DNA of 42,684 nucleotides. It comes from a virus (taxonomy: Duplodnaviria > Heunggongvirae > Uroviricota > Caudoviricetes). The position numbers were made by a program, and so were the translations under genes. The stretch lies in the IMG/VR virus record IMGVR_UViG_2529292907_000016; one strand, given 5' to 3'. Position 1 is the stretch's first letter. The number at the start of each line of letters is the position of its first letter. The notes under the pieces were generated by a model. It saw nothing but the letters and a program-made list of their open reading frames with translations, was not told where the DNA came from and did not search any database. Below are positions 4,356 through 25,151 of this stretch, in pieces.

Positions 4356-4387
4356 TCAAAAAAGCGTCACGGTACTTTTGGTGACGG
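4356..4387 (-). terminator. Intrinsic terminator at the 3' end of gin
   Basis: Minus-strand RNA: stem CGUCAC/GUGACG with 10-nt loop followed by CUUUUUUG; stem overlaps the last gin codons. Confidence 0.55.
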
Positions 4388-4939
4388 AGCTGGTGAGGCA
4401 GGAAAATAACGATAAAGGGTGGAAAGGCCAATATCAAATATCAGTGCGATTTGTTTACGGGACTCGCCATTAGCCAGCAAACGGGCGATTTGCTCCCGCT
4501 CTTTCTCTGTCAGTTTCTGAGGTCTGCCGCCATGACGCCCCTGAGCACGGGCAGCAGCAAGACCCGCGCGTGTACGTTCAATAATGAGTTCCCGCTCCAT
4601 TTCCGCCAGCGCGCCCATTATATGGAAAAAGAAACGTCCCATGGGAGTGGATGTATCAATATTGTCCGTAATGCTGCGGAAGTTAACGCCGCGTTGCCGG
4701 AGTTCTTCTGTTAAAAGGACAAGGTGCTGCATACTGCGTCCAAGGCGATCCAGTTTCCAGACCAGCAGGGTATCCCCTGGCCGGAGTCGCTTTAATGCGC
4801 GTTTAAGTCCGGGACGCTCCCTTGTCTTACCGCTTATTCTGTCTTCGAAAAACAGCTCACATCCTGCACATTCCAGCGCATTTCTTTGTAGCGCCGTATT
4901 CTGGTCATTTGTTGACACCCTGATATACCCAATCAGCAT
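4367..4939 (-). CDS. gin: Serine DNA invertase (Gin/Hin/Pin/Cin family)
   Basis: N-terminal MLIGYIRVSTNDQ (catalytic Ser region), resolvase fold and C-terminal HTH; adjacent to inverted recombination sites. Confidence 0.9.
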   Translation of the reverse strand: MLIGYIRVSTNDQNTALQRNALECAGCELFFEDRISGKTRERPGLKRALKRLRPGDTLLVWKLDRLGRSMQHLVLLTEELRQRGVNFRSITDNIDTSTPMGRFFFHIMGALAEMERELIIERTRAGLAAARAQGRHGGRPQKLTEKEREQIARLLANGESRKQIALIFDIGLSTLYRYFPASPAPSPKVP

Positions 4940-5004
4940 ACGATTTCCTTATTATAAAAAGCCGGAATTGTCGCATGAGGAATAAAACAGAGTTAATCCT
5001 GGCT

Positions 5005-5030
5005 TTCCTGAAAACCTCGGTTTACGGGAA
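5005..5030. other. gix-like recombination site A (26 bp, 12+2+12, core TC)
   Basis: TTCCTGAAAACC TC GGTTTACGGGAA, an imperfect palindrome matching the Gin/Hin site architecture. Confidence 0.6.
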
Positions 5031-5140
5031 ACGGTAAACAGGGCGGCGAATGCTCTGCCATCGGACGGCACCGCCGTTGCCGCGAATAGACTCGCCACCC
5101 CAAGAAATATTAATGGGGTTCCCTTTGACGGGACGCAGGA
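5019..5140. repeat. Inverted repeat arm (~120 bp) matching 6213..6333
   Basis: ~62 bp near-identical plus ~27 bp identical block in reverse complement, separated by a diverged core. Confidence 0.7.
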
Positions 5141-5378
5141 CATAAACATCACTTCTGGTATAACACAGCAGGATGCGGATTCCCGATATATCCAGGATAT
5201 CAGGCTGGGAGCAGAGAACAGGCAGGTAATGTACGGTGGGGCATATTACTCTGCGTACGGTAATGTTATGGCAGGCCTGCAGATTGACAGTAAAGTTGAT
5301 GCTTCAAACGATTTTATAGCATTCAGACCCCTGCAAAAATTAGTCGGAGGTACATGGATTACGGTATCTCAGTTATAA
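5019..5378 (+). CDS. Alternative tail fibre C-terminal segment (Sv'), no own start; expressed only after inversion
   Basis: Open frame from site A encodes [26 protein letters not shown]..., matching residues of S at the constant/variable junction; stop TAA at 5376-5378. Confidence 0.55.
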   Translation, partial: GLRETVNRAANALPSDGTAVAANRLATPRNINGVPFDGTQDINITSGITQQDADSRYIQDIRLGAENRQVMYGGAYYSAYGNVMAGLQIDSKVDASNDFIAFRPLQKLVGGTWITVSQL

Positions 5379-5429
5379 ATAGTCAGTAAATAATATATTT
5401 TAAAACAGATTTATTTCCAGGAGGATTTT

Positions 5430-5951
5430 ATGGAACTAAAAAATATAACCCGTTATTATCCTGAAAATATGCCATATGGTAATAATGTTCAGTATTTCCA
5501 GAGTGAAGATGGTAAGGATTTCTACGAATCCCTGCCATTATTCACCAAAAAATATAAACTTTGCATAACACCTGACAGCGGCGTTATCTGCTCAATATCA
5601 CAGGACGCCTCGGCGCTGTATCCTGCGGGGTTTTCTGTGGTTGAGGTCGATGAACTCCCTGAAGGCACGGATATTTCAGGAAACTGGAAGTTTGATAATG
5701 GCATAATCTCCCGTATTCCGGTTAACTACGCAAGAAAACTGGAAGCAATGCGCCAGTCATATCTTAATCAGGCATATGAAAAAATTAATGACTGGAGAAC
5801 GGAGCTACAACTGGGCACCATCAGCGATGAAGACAGAGCAGCACTTACCCAATGGATGGCATACATCAGTCAGGTGAAGAAAATGGAACTACCCGCCATT
5901 AAAACAGAAGCTGAATTTAACGCCATTAAATGGCCTGAGCAGCCACAGTAA
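5430..5951 (+). CDS. Tail fibre assembly protein (Tfa/U-like)
   Basis: 173-aa ORF directly after Sv' inside the invertible segment; size and position typical of tail fibre chaperones. Confidence 0.75.
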   Translation: MELKNITRYYPENMPYGNNVQYFQSEDGKDFYESLPLFTKKYKLCITPDSGVICSISQDASALYPAGFSVVEVDELPEGTDISGNWKFDNGIISRIPVNYARKLEAMRQSYLNQAYEKINDWRTELQLGTISDEDRAALTQWMAYISQVKKMELPAIKTEAEFNAIKWPEQPQ

Positions 5952-5982
5952 TAAAGAAGGCCGGAAGGCCTTCTGAATATCA

Positions 5983-6864
5983 TTATATACTTGCAGCCGT
6001 CACCCATGCTCCATTTAACAGATACTGCAACGGCCGGTAATACACGCCGCCGACGTTATCTGCCGTATTCTTACCGACATCCTGTACTTTAATTCCGGTA
6101 AGAACATTGCCGCCCCCCAGATTCAGATCCCAGCTTTCCCATGTTCCGGGCATATGTGCGGTCACCGACCCCAGTCTTATGGCGGTTACTGTTCCTGATG
6201 AGATAGTGATATCCTGCGTCCCGTCAAAGGGAACACCATTAATTGTGTGGGCATTTGCCAGCCTGTTCGCGGCAACGGCGGTGCCGTCCGATGGCAGGGC
6301 ATTCGCCGCCCTGTTTACCGTTTCCCGTAAACCGACGTTATCGATAAAAGCCCCTTTATCCGGAATGTCTGCGCCGTTCTGCTCCCTGCGCAGGTAACGG
6401 TTATCACCTTCGCTTTTGCTGTAAACATCCAGATTATTACGGGCGGTTCCCTTATTCTCCAGGTCGGCGAGATTCTGATCCTTCGCCAGGGCATTAACGT
6501 CAGCGGGACCAAGACTGTTTTTTGTGGCAAGCGTCCCCAGACCAAGATAACCACGGGCCAGACGCTGGGCCTCCGCACCGGCATCAGCAATTTCTTTCAG
6601 GTTATTTTTCCGGGAAAAGGCATTCGCAGCGATAATGGCTTTAATGGACAGCGTAAGCTGGTTTAACTGCGCCTTATCCGGCTGAATACTGGCTTCAGCC
6701 AGAATATTCAGCAGTTCGGCCTGGAGAATATTCAGCCAGTCCTGACCAATCCAGCTGATACCTTTTTGTCCGTCACCTTCGGTAAACCAGGTGGTGGTAT
6801 TACTCTGCGCCGGTGCCAGCGCAGGCATATTCGCCACGCCGGAATTATTATCAACATGAAACAT
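5983..6864 (-). CDS. Tail fibre protein (S-like; constant part 6864..6336 joined to variable part 6335..5983 in this orientation)
   Basis: ORF spans recombination site B; follows the baseplate genes. Confidence 0.75.
6213..6333. repeat. Inverted repeat arm matching 5019..5140
   Basis: Reverse complement aligns with 5019..5140 (one mismatch in the first 62 bp). Confidence 0.7.
6322..6347. other. gix-like recombination site B (core GA), inside the tail fibre gene
   Basis: TTCCCGTAAACC GA CGTTATCGATAA; inner half-site is the exact reverse complement of the inner half of site A. Confidence 0.55.
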
Positions 6865-8952: not shown

Positions 8953-8960
8953 TACTGCCT
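8953..8960. repeat. 8-bp target site duplication TACTGCCT (IS66 element, lower side)
   Basis: Identical 8-mer directly flanks both ends of the element. Confidence 0.65.
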
Positions 8961-17810: not shown

Positions 17811-19312
17811 TCACAAAATGAAACGGATCTGCGCGGCCATGAAGCGGAACTGGTTAACCAGATCCGGTGTACACATCACATCCAGACGGTTACGGTCTTT
17901 TGTGTTGCGCTCCACGAGCAGATTCTTTTTAAAGGTGTCCAGATTTTCGACCAGCCCGAGTTCCACCCATTCTTCCCCCAGTGCAATCAGCTGGAGCGTC
18001 ATAATCTCCGGCGTCACGATATTCTGACCGGGCCGGACGGGAGTACCGTTATCGGCCAGTTTGTGGCGCGGGAAACGCTGCGTGATAAAGGTGCGCAGGG
18101 AATAACGCAGATATGACAGGGTGTAGATGGTTTCTACATCCAGATAGCTGGGATCGCTTTCGCCGTATGCATTCTGACGGTACATCGTCACCTGACGTTC
18201 AATCTGCACCACATCAGCGGCCGCAACGGTCACCGTGGACATGCCGGTATAAAGCAGGCTGTTTCGCTCTTCCCGCGTCAGACGAGCCGGTGCTTCAGGT
18301 GCCATACGGGCAGGCAGCGCCAGTGTCTGTAATGGTCGGGCCGGATCCGTTGACAGGGAGGGCGCACAGACCGCACAAATGGAGGCCGCCCAGACATAAT
18401 CCGGCTCTGGTGCTTTAGGAATAGAAGTGCAGGTAAACAGGAAGTCATTACGGGATTCACCAAAACTGGTTGCCGTACCGAAGGTGCCGGTATGCGCCAT
18501 CCAGACCATACCGTCCGACATTTTTACCGGTCCCCAGCGTTTCAGCAGTTCATCCGCCAGAATTTTGAGATTTGCCGCATCCTTATAGGGCATGACGATG
18601 TAGTTGTACTGACGATTCCCCATCCCTGAGACGCTACGGGTGATATCGGGGTTTGTTGCCTTCTGTGTTGGCGCGACGAGCTCCAGCGTAAGACCGGCCG
18701 GTGTAGTTTCACCGTCATAATAGTTCACCCGTAAATCATGAGCTGAGCATTCACCGATAAAGCGGGCGTTAACCCCCATGCTCCCTTTAAGTCCTTCAGC
18801 ATTATCACCACTGACTTCAGCTGCGATAGCAGTGAATGGCGCATCAGTGTCAGCGTTAATGACCTTAGCCAGCTCTTCCACAAGCTCTTTACCTTTTTCC
18901 CCTTACTGACGGGCAGGAGGTAACGGCGACCGCCGATGTAAACACTTAACACCCCGTCTGCCAATGCTGTTCCAATGATATTCATCACGCATGCCCTGGA
19001 CTGACCTGTTCCAGCCCCCTGTGCAATGGCATATAACTCTGTGTCAGGGTTAATGGCGATAAATTCCTCTACCATCAGTGCAATCATGGAACCTCGCCCC
19101 CAGAGTTCTCTTGCTTGTGAAGCTCGGGTAATACGTACTGGTACATCAAGCTGACCGCGCCCCTGAATGGTGGTGTCTTTCATTGCAGCCTGACCAAACA
19201 ACAGTACCGCCTGACGCTGTGGTGGAGTGCCGGTCACGGCCATTGAATTATTGATTTCAATCTGTACCAGCGGAATGCGATTGTTATCGCCGATATAATC
19301 AAAGTTAATCAT
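17811..19312 (-). pseudogene. Tail sheath gene (Mu L-like) split by a frameshift in a T5 homopolymer near 18894-18898
   Basis: ORFs 18725..19312 and 17811..18881 together give ~495 aa; frames differ by 1 nt. Confidence 0.7.
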
Positions 19313-19599
19313 CAGGACGTCCCCTTGTCTGATGCTGCGGGTTTTTCAGTCGCGGGTTTTTCAGTCGCAGGTTTTTCTGCTGCCGCTCCCGCGGGTTTTC
19401 CGGCGGCATCAGTCGTTGCAGACGCTGCTGCCGGTGCTGCTTCAGCCGCTTTTTCCACCACAATGACGTCCCCGTCATTAAGACGGCGGCACCAGAACGG
19501 GGTGAAGGGTTTTTCCTCTCCCTCCTGCGCCAGCGGTTTCATGGTGTCCGGATCGCGGATCAGGCATCCCGGCGCGGGTTTGATAAAAATGGTTGTCAT
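19312..19599 (-). CDS. Hypothetical protein (Mu gp38-like), C-terminal TEKPA peptide repeats
   Basis: 95-aa ORF; C-terminus ...EKPATEKPATEKPAA from three 15-bp tandem repeats. Confidence 0.5.
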   Translation of the reverse strand: MTTIFIKPAPGCLIRDPDTMKPLAQEGEEKPFTPFWCRRLNDGDVIVVEKAAEAAPAAASATTDAAGKPAGAAAEKPATEKPATEKPAASDKGTS

Positions 19600-19602
19600 C
19601 TG

Positions 19603-20166
19603 TTATTCCTCTGACGGTCCGGCTTTTTCACCGGCGGCGGTTGCACCTGGCAGGCTGATGTGCGCCTTAAATTCCGGTGTGCCTTCCGGTTCGGTGAAGG
19701 TTTCGTAATGGCGCAGGAAATCATCCAGCGAGCTGATATCAGTCAGCGGTGCGATCATTTCCTCGCAGGAGAAATAAAGCGCATACATCACCGCGCCACT
19801 GTCGGCCTGCGTTTCGGTGTAACCGTTGACCGCCTTTTCAAAGTAAAGCGGTGAGGTTTTTTCGGTTCTGAAGCCGTCCAGCACGGTAATCAGGCGGGCC
19901 ACAATCTGATAAAGCCCGGGACGGCTGACCTCACGGCCATTGAGCATGTCGCCGATGACGTAGAACACCCAGTGGCTGACCAGACGCCCACGGGTACGGC
20001 CTTCACCGGCACCCAGCCAGGCAACGTAGATCGCCGGGGCGCTAATCAGCATGGTGCGCAGCACACTGTCGCTCCAGTCGCCGGGATGCGTGTCAACTGA
20101 CACCAGTTCATTCCCGAAATACTCACGGATACGGGCGATGTACGCTTGCTCGGTTTCCGTAATCAT
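19603..20166 (-). CDS. Tail completion/neck protein candidate (Mu gp37-like)
   Basis: Synteny between head and sheath genes. Confidence 0.5.
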   Translation of the reverse strand: MITETEQAYIARIREYFGNELVSVDTHPGDWSDSVLRTMLISAPAIYVAWLGAGEGRTRGRLVSHWVFYVIGDMLNGREVSRPGLYQIVARLITVLDGFRTEKTSPLYFEKAVNGYTETQADSGAVMYALYFSCEEMIAPLTDISSLDDFLRHYETFTEPEGTPEFKAHISLPGATAAGEKAGPSEE

Positions 20167-20582
20167 ATAAAGCCCTTCTGGTTGCGCCCGAACACCGCCG
20201 CATCAGACTGCACCTGCGGTAAATCCCCGGATTCAGGGGCCGCACCGTCTGTATCCACGCCGACCGGCACGTTACCGTTCATGACATCTTTCAGCCAGGC
20301 CAGCGCCTCACGGTAACGGTCACGCGCCTGATCGGATGCCCGCTGATCGCACAGGTAATAAAAGGCAATCGTGCAGCAATGCTGAACAAGGACCGCCGGA
20401 ACCACCGCCAGCGGCAGCGTGTAACGGGCAGACAGGTAACTGTCGATAAGGGCAGACGCGTCCGTCAGTGCCCGGTTCAGCTTGCGCGCGTCCGGCTCAT
20501 CCGAACGGGGCACGGCCAGTAATGGCCTGAGCAAATCCTCGCGGTAACGTGCCCGCATATCGGTTTCGGTGGCGTAATTCAT
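20163..20582 (-). CDS. Head-tail joining protein candidate (Mu gp36-like)
   Basis: Synteny; start overlaps upstream stop. Confidence 0.5.
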   Translation of the reverse strand: MNYATETDMRARYREDLLRPLLAVPRSDEPDARKLNRALTDASALIDSYLSARYTLPLAVVPAVLVQHCCTIAFYYLCDQRASDQARDRYREALAWLKDVMNGNVPVGVDTDGAAPESGDLPQVQSDAAVFGRNQKGFI

Positions 20583-20932
20583 GCGCGAGCCTTTTTCGCC
20601 TGTCTGGCGTTATTGCCGGTCTTTTTCCGGGGAGCATCCTGTCCGGCTTCGGCTAAATCTGCACCGGTCTCTGCATGAACCACACCCGCCACGGCTCCCG
20701 CATCATCACCAGGCGTCTGTAGTATTCGTACAGTGAGGCATGGCTCCGCTTCCAGTCGGGCAAGCTGCTCCGGGGTGACGTCAACCTGCTGGCGTCCCCG
20801 CATGAACAGGAACCCCGCACGACGAAACTGCGCACGACTGCAACGCACTTCTGCCAGTACCGTGACAGGACTGTCACCACTGACCTGAAGGCCTGAATCA
20901 TCTGTTGCTGCCACAGTGTGATGTTCATTCAT
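20579..20932 (-). CDS. Hypothetical head-associated protein
   Basis: 117-aa ORF after major head gene. Confidence 0.45.
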   Translation of the reverse strand: MNEHHTVAATDDSGLQVSGDSPVTVLAEVRCSRAQFRRAGFLFMRGRQQVDVTPEQLARLEAEPCLTVRILQTPGDDAGAVAGVVHAETGADLAEAGQDAPRKKTGNNARQAKKARA

Positions 20933-23224: not shown

Positions 23225-23698
23225 TTACGGCGTTTCTGTGGCCTTTTTAAAGCGTTTTCTGATTTCGTCCATGATCTCCTGTTCTGCCACCTGATCAAAG
23301 CCCATATACGGACGTGCGCCAATGGCCGCCGGTCCCGGTGGCATACCAGGCAGGCCACCCCACTGATGAATGGCCGCATAAGGTTCATTTGATCCAATCA
23401 GCGCCCAGGTATCGCCATAATCCGTGGTCAGGCGGCGGGCCAGATCGCCGTTCAGTGTCAGGATTTTGCCGGGCGTGTATCCCTTACGGGTACGCCACTT
23501 GCGGTAAGGATCTGACCAGTCATGCCAGCGTTCGCCGTCCGGCTCTTTTTCCTGTTCAAACGCCATTTCTGACGAGGACAGAAGACTCTCCGCCACACTG
23601 CGGGCCAGGTCTTTTCCGCCGCCCACAAACTGAAGCCGGGCAAACACCCGCTGGAGACGCGTAACGTCAACAACGACAGCGGCATCAATGGATGACAT
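23225..23698 (-). CDS. Virion morphogenesis protein (Mu G-like)
   Basis: 157-aa ORF between F-like and I-like genes. Confidence 0.6.
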   Translation of the reverse strand: MSSIDAAVVVDVTRLQRVFARLQFVGGGKDLARSVAESLLSSSEMAFEQEKEPDGERWHDWSDPYRKWRTRKGYTPGKILTLNGDLARRLTTDYGDTWALIGSNEPYAAIHQWGGLPGMPPGPAAIGARPYMGFDQVAEQEIMDEIRKRFKKATETP

Positions 23699-23819
23699 AT
23701 TGCCTCCGCATAAAGGATGAATATAAAATAAACAGGCGGTCAGTGTACGCTTAACTGGTAAAGTCGGTGCCTGCCTCCGGGTGGATCATGTATGCGGGTT
23801 CGACCCCCGCCACTGACCG

Positions 23820-25151
23820 TTAATCAATTTGTCCTTCCAGCACCTCAAGCATTCCGCCCCGGATATCCGATTTCAGCTTATCCATATTGATAACCCGGTA
23901 AGCATTCACAATCACATCCAGTTTGTCGGGCTGACGTTTCAGACTGTACGGTGCATTAACGGCAATCTGCACACTGCCATCCTTATTTTCCACGATATAC
24001 ATCAGATTTTTGTGCCGTTTGTCCCACAGCACCGCTTTTGGCTTTGCCAGCATTGCCGGTAAGCGCCCGAAGTCCTCTGGCATCAGGGCGATGCCGTCAT
24101 TCTGATGTTTCACACTGTCTGCATGGAGCACATTTTTACCGCTCATCGCCAGCAGGCGGGCCGGTGGCGTTCCCGTCCGGCTTTCCACTGCCTGCGCAAT
24201 GCTTTCAGTCATAAAGCCCAGCGTGCGGATATCGTTACCACCTCGCCGGGTCTGCATGATGTTTTTTGCCCAGATGCGGAACGCCAGCTGCCGCTCCGGG
24301 CTGTTGTTCATCTCCTGAACCACCATTTCCCGTAACGCCGGGCTTTTCACCTCGATCAGTTTGCGGATCAGCGCCTGGTCTGTGCCGAACGCTGCCGAGC
24401 CGGGGTTATATGACCAGCCCACATCCGGTGTCATGGTTCTGGTGCCATCTGAATATGTGGTCACCGGCATTTCTCTGACTTCTCCGGTCTGTTTATCCAC
24501 GCCAGCCTCAACATTGCGGGTGGAGAGATGATCCTCACCGGATGAAACGGATAACCCCATTGCATCCAGACGAGCCTGAGACAATGGCCGCACACGGCAG
24601 CGGCAGTTCCAGCCATTAGGTGGGTAGTGTGTTTTCCAGAACGGATCGTCATAGCGGAATACCAGACCGTTAAGGGCGGAATGCGACGGGCGGGTACGGC
24701 TGTCCATGACCGCCACATACTGCCAGAACGGATGCGTGTCCGTGTTGTTCATCATCTGCGTGTAACGCCCGGCATTGTAAGCCACACGGGTGTTCACGTT
24801 GTAAATCAGCGCCAGACGACGGGGACTGCCCAGTTGCACTTCTTCCGCGTTACCGTCGCTGTCCACCACAATCTGCTTTCCCCACCATCCCAGCTTTTGC
24901 AGGCGTGGCGTCAGCGTGCGGATAAATGCTTTCTGTGAAATTCCCTCATCAATGGCCCGCTGCACTTCGGCCTGTAACGTGGTCACCACATCCAGGCGTG
25001 CCGCTTTTGCTGCCGTGAATGAGCGGGCATGAACATCCGCGGCTGTTTCGAACCAGTTCCAGCTGATATGCGCCCCTTTGACACGGAAGTATGCTACCGC
25101 CTCTTTTGAGGGAAGCGTGGCGGCATAACCTAAATCAATCCCCTGTGTCAT
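23820..25151 (-). CDS. Head morphogenesis protein (Mu F-like)
   Basis: 443-aa ORF directly after portal gene. Confidence 0.7.
   Translation of the reverse strand: MTQGIDLGYAATLPSKEAVAYFRVKGAHISWNWFETAADVHARSFTAAKAARLDVVTTLQAEVQRAIDEGISQKAFIRTLTPRLQKLGWWGKQIVVDSDGNAEEVQLGSPRRLALIYNVNTRVAYNAGRYTQMMNNTDTHPFWQYVAVMDSRTRPSHSALNGLVFRYDDPFWKTHYPPNGWNCRCRVRPLSQARLDAMGLSVSSGEDHLSTRNVEAGVDKQTGEVREMPVTTYSDGTRTMTPDVGWSYNPGSAAFGTDQALIRKLIEVKSPALREMVVQEMNNSPERQLAFRIWAKNIMQTRRGGNDIRTLGFMTESIAQAVESRTGTPPARLLAMSGKNVLHADSVKHQNDGIALMPEDFGRLPAMLAKPKAVLWDKRHKNLMYIVENKDGSVQIAVNAPYSLKRQPDKLDVIVNAYRVINMDKLKSDIRGGMLEVLEGQID

Follow-up and report, generated by a model that had tools for sequence, protein, structure and literature searches.

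A tail sheath gene split by one base in a Mu-like prophage of Escherichia coli, probably through a homopolymer undercall in a draft assembly

The sheath gene and its two reading frames

The stretch of DNA analysed here (the window, 42,684 nucleotides, IMG/VR record IMGVR_UViG_2529292907_000016) carries a tail sheath gene, homologous to gpL of phage Mu, at positions 17811 to 19312 of the minus strand. It is flanked by a DUF2635 gene and by the tail tube gene, as in its relatives, the tube gene lying 8 nt downstream, and it measures 1502 nt as against 1503 nt (500 aa) in all relatives. A single uninterrupted sheath reading frame, found in all of these relatives, is absent from the window, where the gene is distributed over two frames:

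18725 to 19312, minus strand: N-terminal open reading frame, ATG at 19312, stop at 18727-18725, 195 codons plus stop
17811 to 18902, minus strand: C-terminal frame, 363 sense codons after a TAA at 18905-18903, stop at 17813-17811

The frame changes in a run of five A residues, positions 18898 to 18894 of the minus strand (T5 on the plus strand), in the context GGGG-AAAAA-GG, and the minus strand at the break reads GTC AGT AAG GGG AAA AAG GTA. A preliminary description of this DNA had placed the break in the TTTTT run at 18894-18898, which is indeed where the frame switches, and had predicted that one extra T would restore the gene. Adding one A to the minus strand (T on the plus strand) does so: it gives GGG AAA AAA GGT AAA GAG and a continuous 500-codon sheath gene that matches all close relatives. 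The same description gave the two parts as about 138 and about 356 codons of a protein of about 495 aa; the division between two frames stands, while the figures have to be corrected to 140 + 360 = 500 aa. Only residues 1-140 of the N-terminal reading frame are true sheath, the following 55 codons (141-195) being out of frame, and a Pfam search of the 195-codon reading frame returned no match. A homologue search with the N-terminal 140 aa recovered fragments only, from which no useful distribution of lengths could be drawn. The C-terminal frame corresponds to sheath residues 141-500 and includes both Pfam sheath domains; the GTG at 18881 is simply the first start codon given for it in the list of open reading frames. 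The two frames overlap by 58 codons (18902 to 18728).

Once repaired by one base, the sheath matches PHROG 165 'tail sheath' with E = 3.5e-194 over residues 1-500, and contains PF04984 (Phage_sheath_1) at residues 217-377 (E = 3e-34) and PF17482 (Phage_sheath_1C) at 385-498 (E = 3e-22). It is collinear with Mu gpL over the full length, with 49.7% identity across residues 2-500, so the earlier identification of a Mu L-like sheath was right. Some small PHROG families match sheath residues 1-134 and 345-500, and they were presumably built from fragments of split genes such as this one.

The prophage and its other lesions

The whole window is a Mu-like prophage, with mom at 1-738, transposase and repressor genes at about 38.5-41.5 kb, and the host gene ycgV beginning at 41819. 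It bears an insertion element and a nonsense codon:

8961 to 11726, open reading frames on the minus strand: IS66-family element of 2766 bp, encoding TnpA-like, TnpB_IS66 and DDE_Tnp_IS66 proteins
39131 to 39133, minus strand: amber codon in the MuA-like transposase gene (40552 to 38471), TGG to TAG after residue 473 of 694

The IS66 element is bordered by an 8-bp target duplication, TACTGCCT, at 8953-8960 and 11727-11734. It has entered the 3' end of the baseplate gene gp45, where 197 of the 204 residues precede it, and it parts gp45 from gp46. The insertion is missing in E. coli AF39 and in HH35 and present in modern lineage-mates, and because it is common to the latter it is real. At least 20 contigs, metagenomic ones and an NCTC-type genome among them, have the transposase amber, and in each the prophage occupies the same ycgV site; being common to independent contigs, the codon marks the prophage as genuinely transposition-defective. 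That the prophage is dead through the transposase amber and the IS66 insertion is well supported.

Several further features of the element and its relatives were observed. The prophage divides ycgV, an autotransporter gene, whose N-terminal part lies at the repressor end (41819-42684) and whose C-terminal part follows mom just beyond position 1 (18833-20641 in the related locus L039). The beginning of the window coincides exactly with the mom stop codon and its end with the start of an open reading frame, so that it seems to have been cut at gene boundaries. Between 11727 and 29306, comparison with five related loci shows a strongly mosaic pattern: stretches with 0 differences give way to stretches that diverge by 3-7% (19.5-21 kb and 21-29 kb are examples), and boundaries between them fall within about 200-600 bp of the sheath gene, which indicates frequent recombination among related Mu-like prophages. 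The region 4370-6864 is a G-segment-like invertible region, with a Gin-like recombinase gene, genes for the tail fibre and its assembly protein in opposite orientations, and a second, partial copy of the tail-fibre gene; short-read contigs of relatives break consistently at the window-equivalent position 6306. RefSeq annotates a 'tRNA-OTHER' in relatives between the gpG-like and gpF-like genes (about 23740-23820 of the window; 23517-23596 in relative L007), and ARAGORN detected no tRNA in the entire window. In the clone-mate DEC6A (AIFV01000013.1) little of the prophage is left downstream of gam, and an IS1 transposase gene is followed directly by host treA, which suggests an IS1-mediated deletion, and in GCA_900450155.1 another insertion sequence (rve family) breaks the MuB gene.

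Sheath homologues and independent copies of the same prophage

Homologues encode the sheath in one piece. Most of the query is held in a single place in 212 of the 232 E. coli genome records that match it and in 184 of 190 matching records of a phage collection; all 60 rows inspected in that collection show a one-piece sheath, and every fetched E. coli relative annotates a 1503-bp gene. A natural split of homologues at the junction, which the preliminary description had considered, is ruled out by these single reading frames, found in E. coli genomes and in the phage collection alike. At the site itself, close relatives have A6, and more distant alleles have CAAAAA or CAGAAA. Alignment of the window with AF39, its closest complete-genome relative, shows exactly one indel in 29.5 kb besides the 2766-bp insertion.

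The window is 100% identical to the draft contig AIFW01000016.1 of E. coli DEC6B, with 0 differences over 20,588 + 6,594 bp (27.2 kb compared). Three features mark the members of its lineage: an IS66 element flanked by the 8-bp target duplication, a transposase gene interrupted by the TGG-to-TAG change, and integration in ycgV. Some of these members have been sequenced independently. The ENA contig ERZ27246379 k141_57840 shows 0 substitutions against the window over 20,633 bp, IS66 insertion included, and differs from it solely by having A6; ERZ809753 likewise shows 0 substitutions over 8,264 bp, A6 again being the sole difference. In GCA_900450015.1, the 4.39-Mb contig matches the window at 100% identity along 18,497 bp, and its sheath is called at 500 aa. 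Within the IS66-positive, ycgV-inserted lineage, A6 is thus read in 3 of 3 datasets that do not belong to the 2010-2011 era of sequencing discussed below. The one-base homopolymer change is in this way contradicted by independent sequences of the same element, identical to it over up to 20.6 kb except for A6, and evidence for T6 on the plus strand was obtained indirectly from these copies. The lesion does not follow phylogeny as an inherited pseudogene should: A5 crosses haplotypes and follows the sequencing era.

Distribution of the five-A and six-A alleles

The exact 195-aa frameshift product was found in at least 11 contigs from 9 samples, with E. coli DEC6B and DEC6D and Shigella sonnei 3226-85 and 53G as named sources, and stands in public databases under EHV61704.1 for E. 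coli DEC6B and EIQ40783.1 for S. sonnei 3226-85. The loci of this product all show A5 or its equivalent. A first conclusion, that A5 is real because this product recurs in so many contigs and samples, was overturned, most of the samples being from 2010-2011 and carrying other homopolymer errors. Logan re-assemblies were rejected as independent support for A5 since they derive from the same reads, and ERR14061149, CXCY01000024.1 and ERR025737 were rejected as supporters because all of them have A6 with different lesions.

All A5 loci had been retrieved through the broken product, and the site was therefore also sampled without regard to phenotype. A junction-centred query recovered the 102-nt span with A6 in 19 of 19 complete E. 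coli genomes; an allele-neutral pattern gave AAAAAA in all 20 contigs that it matched, 10 from IMG/VR and 10 from metagenomes; and the loci retrieved through the gp47 gene were A6 in 9 of 9 cases. The intact sheath protein is present in at least 1000 contigs, compared with about 11-14 for the A5 product.

True A5 followed by GG was found in seven datasets or drafts of 2010-2011, namely SRR065192, SRR094061, SRR094137, SRR094138, SRR354113 and the DEC6B and S. sonnei 3226-85 assemblies. These span at least three prophage haplotypes, up to 250 substitutions apart in mosaic blocks, and reach outside the DEC6 lineage to the S. sonnei H3 type and P0008 type haplotypes. Outside 2010-2011 the same allele was seen in just two short recent contigs, Logan SRR27681218 (2.8 kb) and ENA ERZ28578559 (1.1 kb), both 100% identical to the window. 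Seven of nine A5 loci come from 2010-2011, as against 0 of 17 non-A5 loci, a strong association (Fisher p = 5.5e-5, with clone-mate datasets counted as independent). The first of the recent contigs, SRR27681218_10299, joins the window-equivalent segments 20986-20570, 19828-17859 and 12656-12271, and represents a prophage remnant with internal deletions or, alternatively, a chimera of the assembly.

Relatives carry other lesions in the sheath gene. A6 is read in S. sonnei CXCY01000024.1 and in run ERR025737, whose sheath is instead broken by a GAG to TAG change at window-equivalent 18875, 20 nt downstream of the run. ERR14061149 reads GGGG-AAAAAA-G-TAAAG, that is, A6 followed by the loss of one G (window-equivalent 18893), which yields the same 195-aa product. 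The lesions in these three records are genuine and independent and constitute no evidence for the A5 of the window. One of the sheath copies of E. coli JE86-ST05 (AP022815.1) has an extra C upstream, and further truncated sheath alleles occur in P0076 and in P0081/P0083.

Homopolymer noise in the 2010-2011 data

The light signal in pyrosequencing is proportional to run length, and long A/T runs are prone to being under-called. The datasets of 2010-2011 show sporadic and mutually inconsistent one-base changes in seven further runs, at each of which later datasets agree with one another:

17407: A7
25853: G6
36965: A8
38682: A6
8525: T6
6767: A5
12214: A4

Other error-prone runs are miscalled in about 50-70% of these datasets, whereas A5 is called in 7 of 7 datasets of this era. 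The window also has a second private contraction, at 38459 to 38464 of the minus strand, where the window has A6 in place of A7, in the intergenic spacer that separates the transposase gene from MuB. A7 is read there in 14 of 14 lineage-mate loci, including a re-assembly of SRR094137 that otherwise has no substitutions relative to the window. Measured against the lineage consensus, the window differs by 2 homopolymer contractions of its own and by 0 private substitutions. Contemporaneous E. coli drafts of the same institute were produced with 454 Titanium (paired-end) reads only and Celera assembly (PMC3491183), and artificial frameshifts arising from such homopolymer artefacts are a documented concern (PMC4746626).

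Interpretation of the split

The reading we favour, with a probability of roughly 70%, is that A5 is a homopolymer undercall of flow chemistry (454-type) in the DEC6B draft, and that the organism itself has A6 and an intact sheath of 500 aa. The one-base difference is restricted to one data era and co-occurs there with noise in other homopolymer runs; from this we infer a 454-type platform and a true length of A6 in DEC6B. Most reads would have under-called the site, so that the consensus would have lost one base; the undercall would then have been kept in the DEC6B draft assembly, the source of the window, and a gene caller working on the shortened consensus would have reported two open reading frames. 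An artefact is favoured because lineage-mates are identical except for A6, unselected samples all have A6, A5 is tied to the era, and noise is present in other runs. Of the two readings offered by the preliminary description, an inactivating lesion or a homopolymer error, it is the error that is preferred and the lesion that is probably wrong, T5 tracking sequencing era and not phylogeny. Some observations nevertheless speak against an artefact. An undercall would require a hot spot at which the error is unusually deterministic; several of the era datasets are DEC6 clone-mates, for which one real mutation is an equally good explanation; the prophage was already dead, with no selection against a real frameshift; and two recent contigs that match the window at 100% identity also read A5, which makes it probable that the allele is real in some source.

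These points lead to the alternative that A5 is a real one-base slippage deletion of A6 in the DEC6 clone, which arose after the prophage was inactivated and left the sheath a pseudogene, its product having 140 real residues and a 55-residue nonsense tail and lacking both sheath domains. We consider this unlikely, though with a substantial share of the remaining probability. Such a deletion would be neutral, since the prophage is truly defective (the transposase amber and the IS66 element that clips gp45 are both seen in modern, high-accuracy datasets too); all DEC6-type datasets read A5, as do the two recent window-identical contigs (SRR27681218 and ERZ28578559), and clearly real lesions have independently struck the same gene in relatives. 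Set against this, the closest lineage-mates differ from the window at this base alone, and A5 is absent from every sample that was not selected on phenotype. Its presence on unrelated haplotypes, essentially only in 2010-2011, would require several independent identical mutations within one era. The second private contraction, contradicted by all 14 lineage-mates, and the lack of private substitutions also weigh against a deletion: E. coli mutation spectra make two homopolymer indels with zero substitutions unlikely for real divergence.

A5 might also be real and compensated by recoding. A -1 slip on the zero-frame G_AAA_AAG, in which tRNA-Lys on AAG re-pairs with AAA, would give VSKGKK-GKELVEE, that is, the wild-type sheath, a consequence that follows directly from the sequence, and the overlap of the two frames leaves room for slippage. 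The tetranucleotide A_AAG, present here in the zero frame, is documented as prone to -1 shifts in E. coli (PMC5009743), and suppression of single-base deletions can reach an aggregate 1-10% in this species (PMC10861913). However, a slippery heptamer X_XXY_YYZ is missing from the zero frame, GGG AAA AAG offering only the tetranucleotide, and the 94 nt downstream hold no stimulatory RNA structure beyond chance (MFE -24.2 kcal/mol against a shuffle mean of -24.2, z = -0.01). The flanks are those of the ancestral A6 context with no adaptation seen, homologues have no two-frame arrangement at this site, sheath protein is required in large stoichiometric amounts, and the prophage is unable to replicate anyway. 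Compensation of this kind is accordingly very improbable, and it is just as hard to credit that -1 slippage has allowed a genuine A5, as a compensated frameshift in a major structural gene, to persist among older isolates of E. coli and Shigella on several haplotypes of Mu-like prophages.

Significance for databases and annotation

The split observed in the window is correct as a description, and most likely the feature itself is not biological; it would be ordinary in either case. If the base were truly missing, the loss would still be a neutral slip of an ordinary kind that turned a gene of a defunct prophage into a pseudogene. Reading A5 as a lesion would overstate the decay of the element. 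The consequences are seen in public databases, where the split sheath stands as two 'tail sheath domain' proteins (EHV61704.1 and EHV61740.1, with S. sonnei equivalents) and also seeds small fragment families. The main value of the case is one of caution.

Comparison with known systems

The -1 frameshifting sites of dnaX and of IS elements (A_AAA_AAG, A_AAG) are like the window in having a zero-frame A_AAG and in that a -1 slip restores the protein. The window differs from them in that the full heptamer, the stimulatory structure and the conserved split are all absent, and the similarity is one of resemblance only. With frameshifts caused by pyrosequencing miscalls in draft genomes it shares a one-base contraction in an A/T run of six and the presence of other discordant runs in the same family of data; unlike the usual miscalls, the same error recurs here in every era dataset examined and is more deterministic than those at other runs.

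The sheaths of Mu (gpL), SfMu and D108 are alike over their full length to the repaired sheath of the window (49.7-50.9% identity, residues 2-500), and they share with it PF04984, PF17482 and the gene order DUF2635/gp38-like, sheath, tube. The window departs from Mu in belonging to a distinct E. coli/Shigella group of Mu-like prophages, at about 50% identity, and in having its sheath in two frames with one base missing. A further close match is the intact allele encoding WP_021554363.1 (E. coli AF39 and JKHS016; ERZ27246379 k141_57840), the gene DNA of which is identical to that of the window, with A6 instead of A5.
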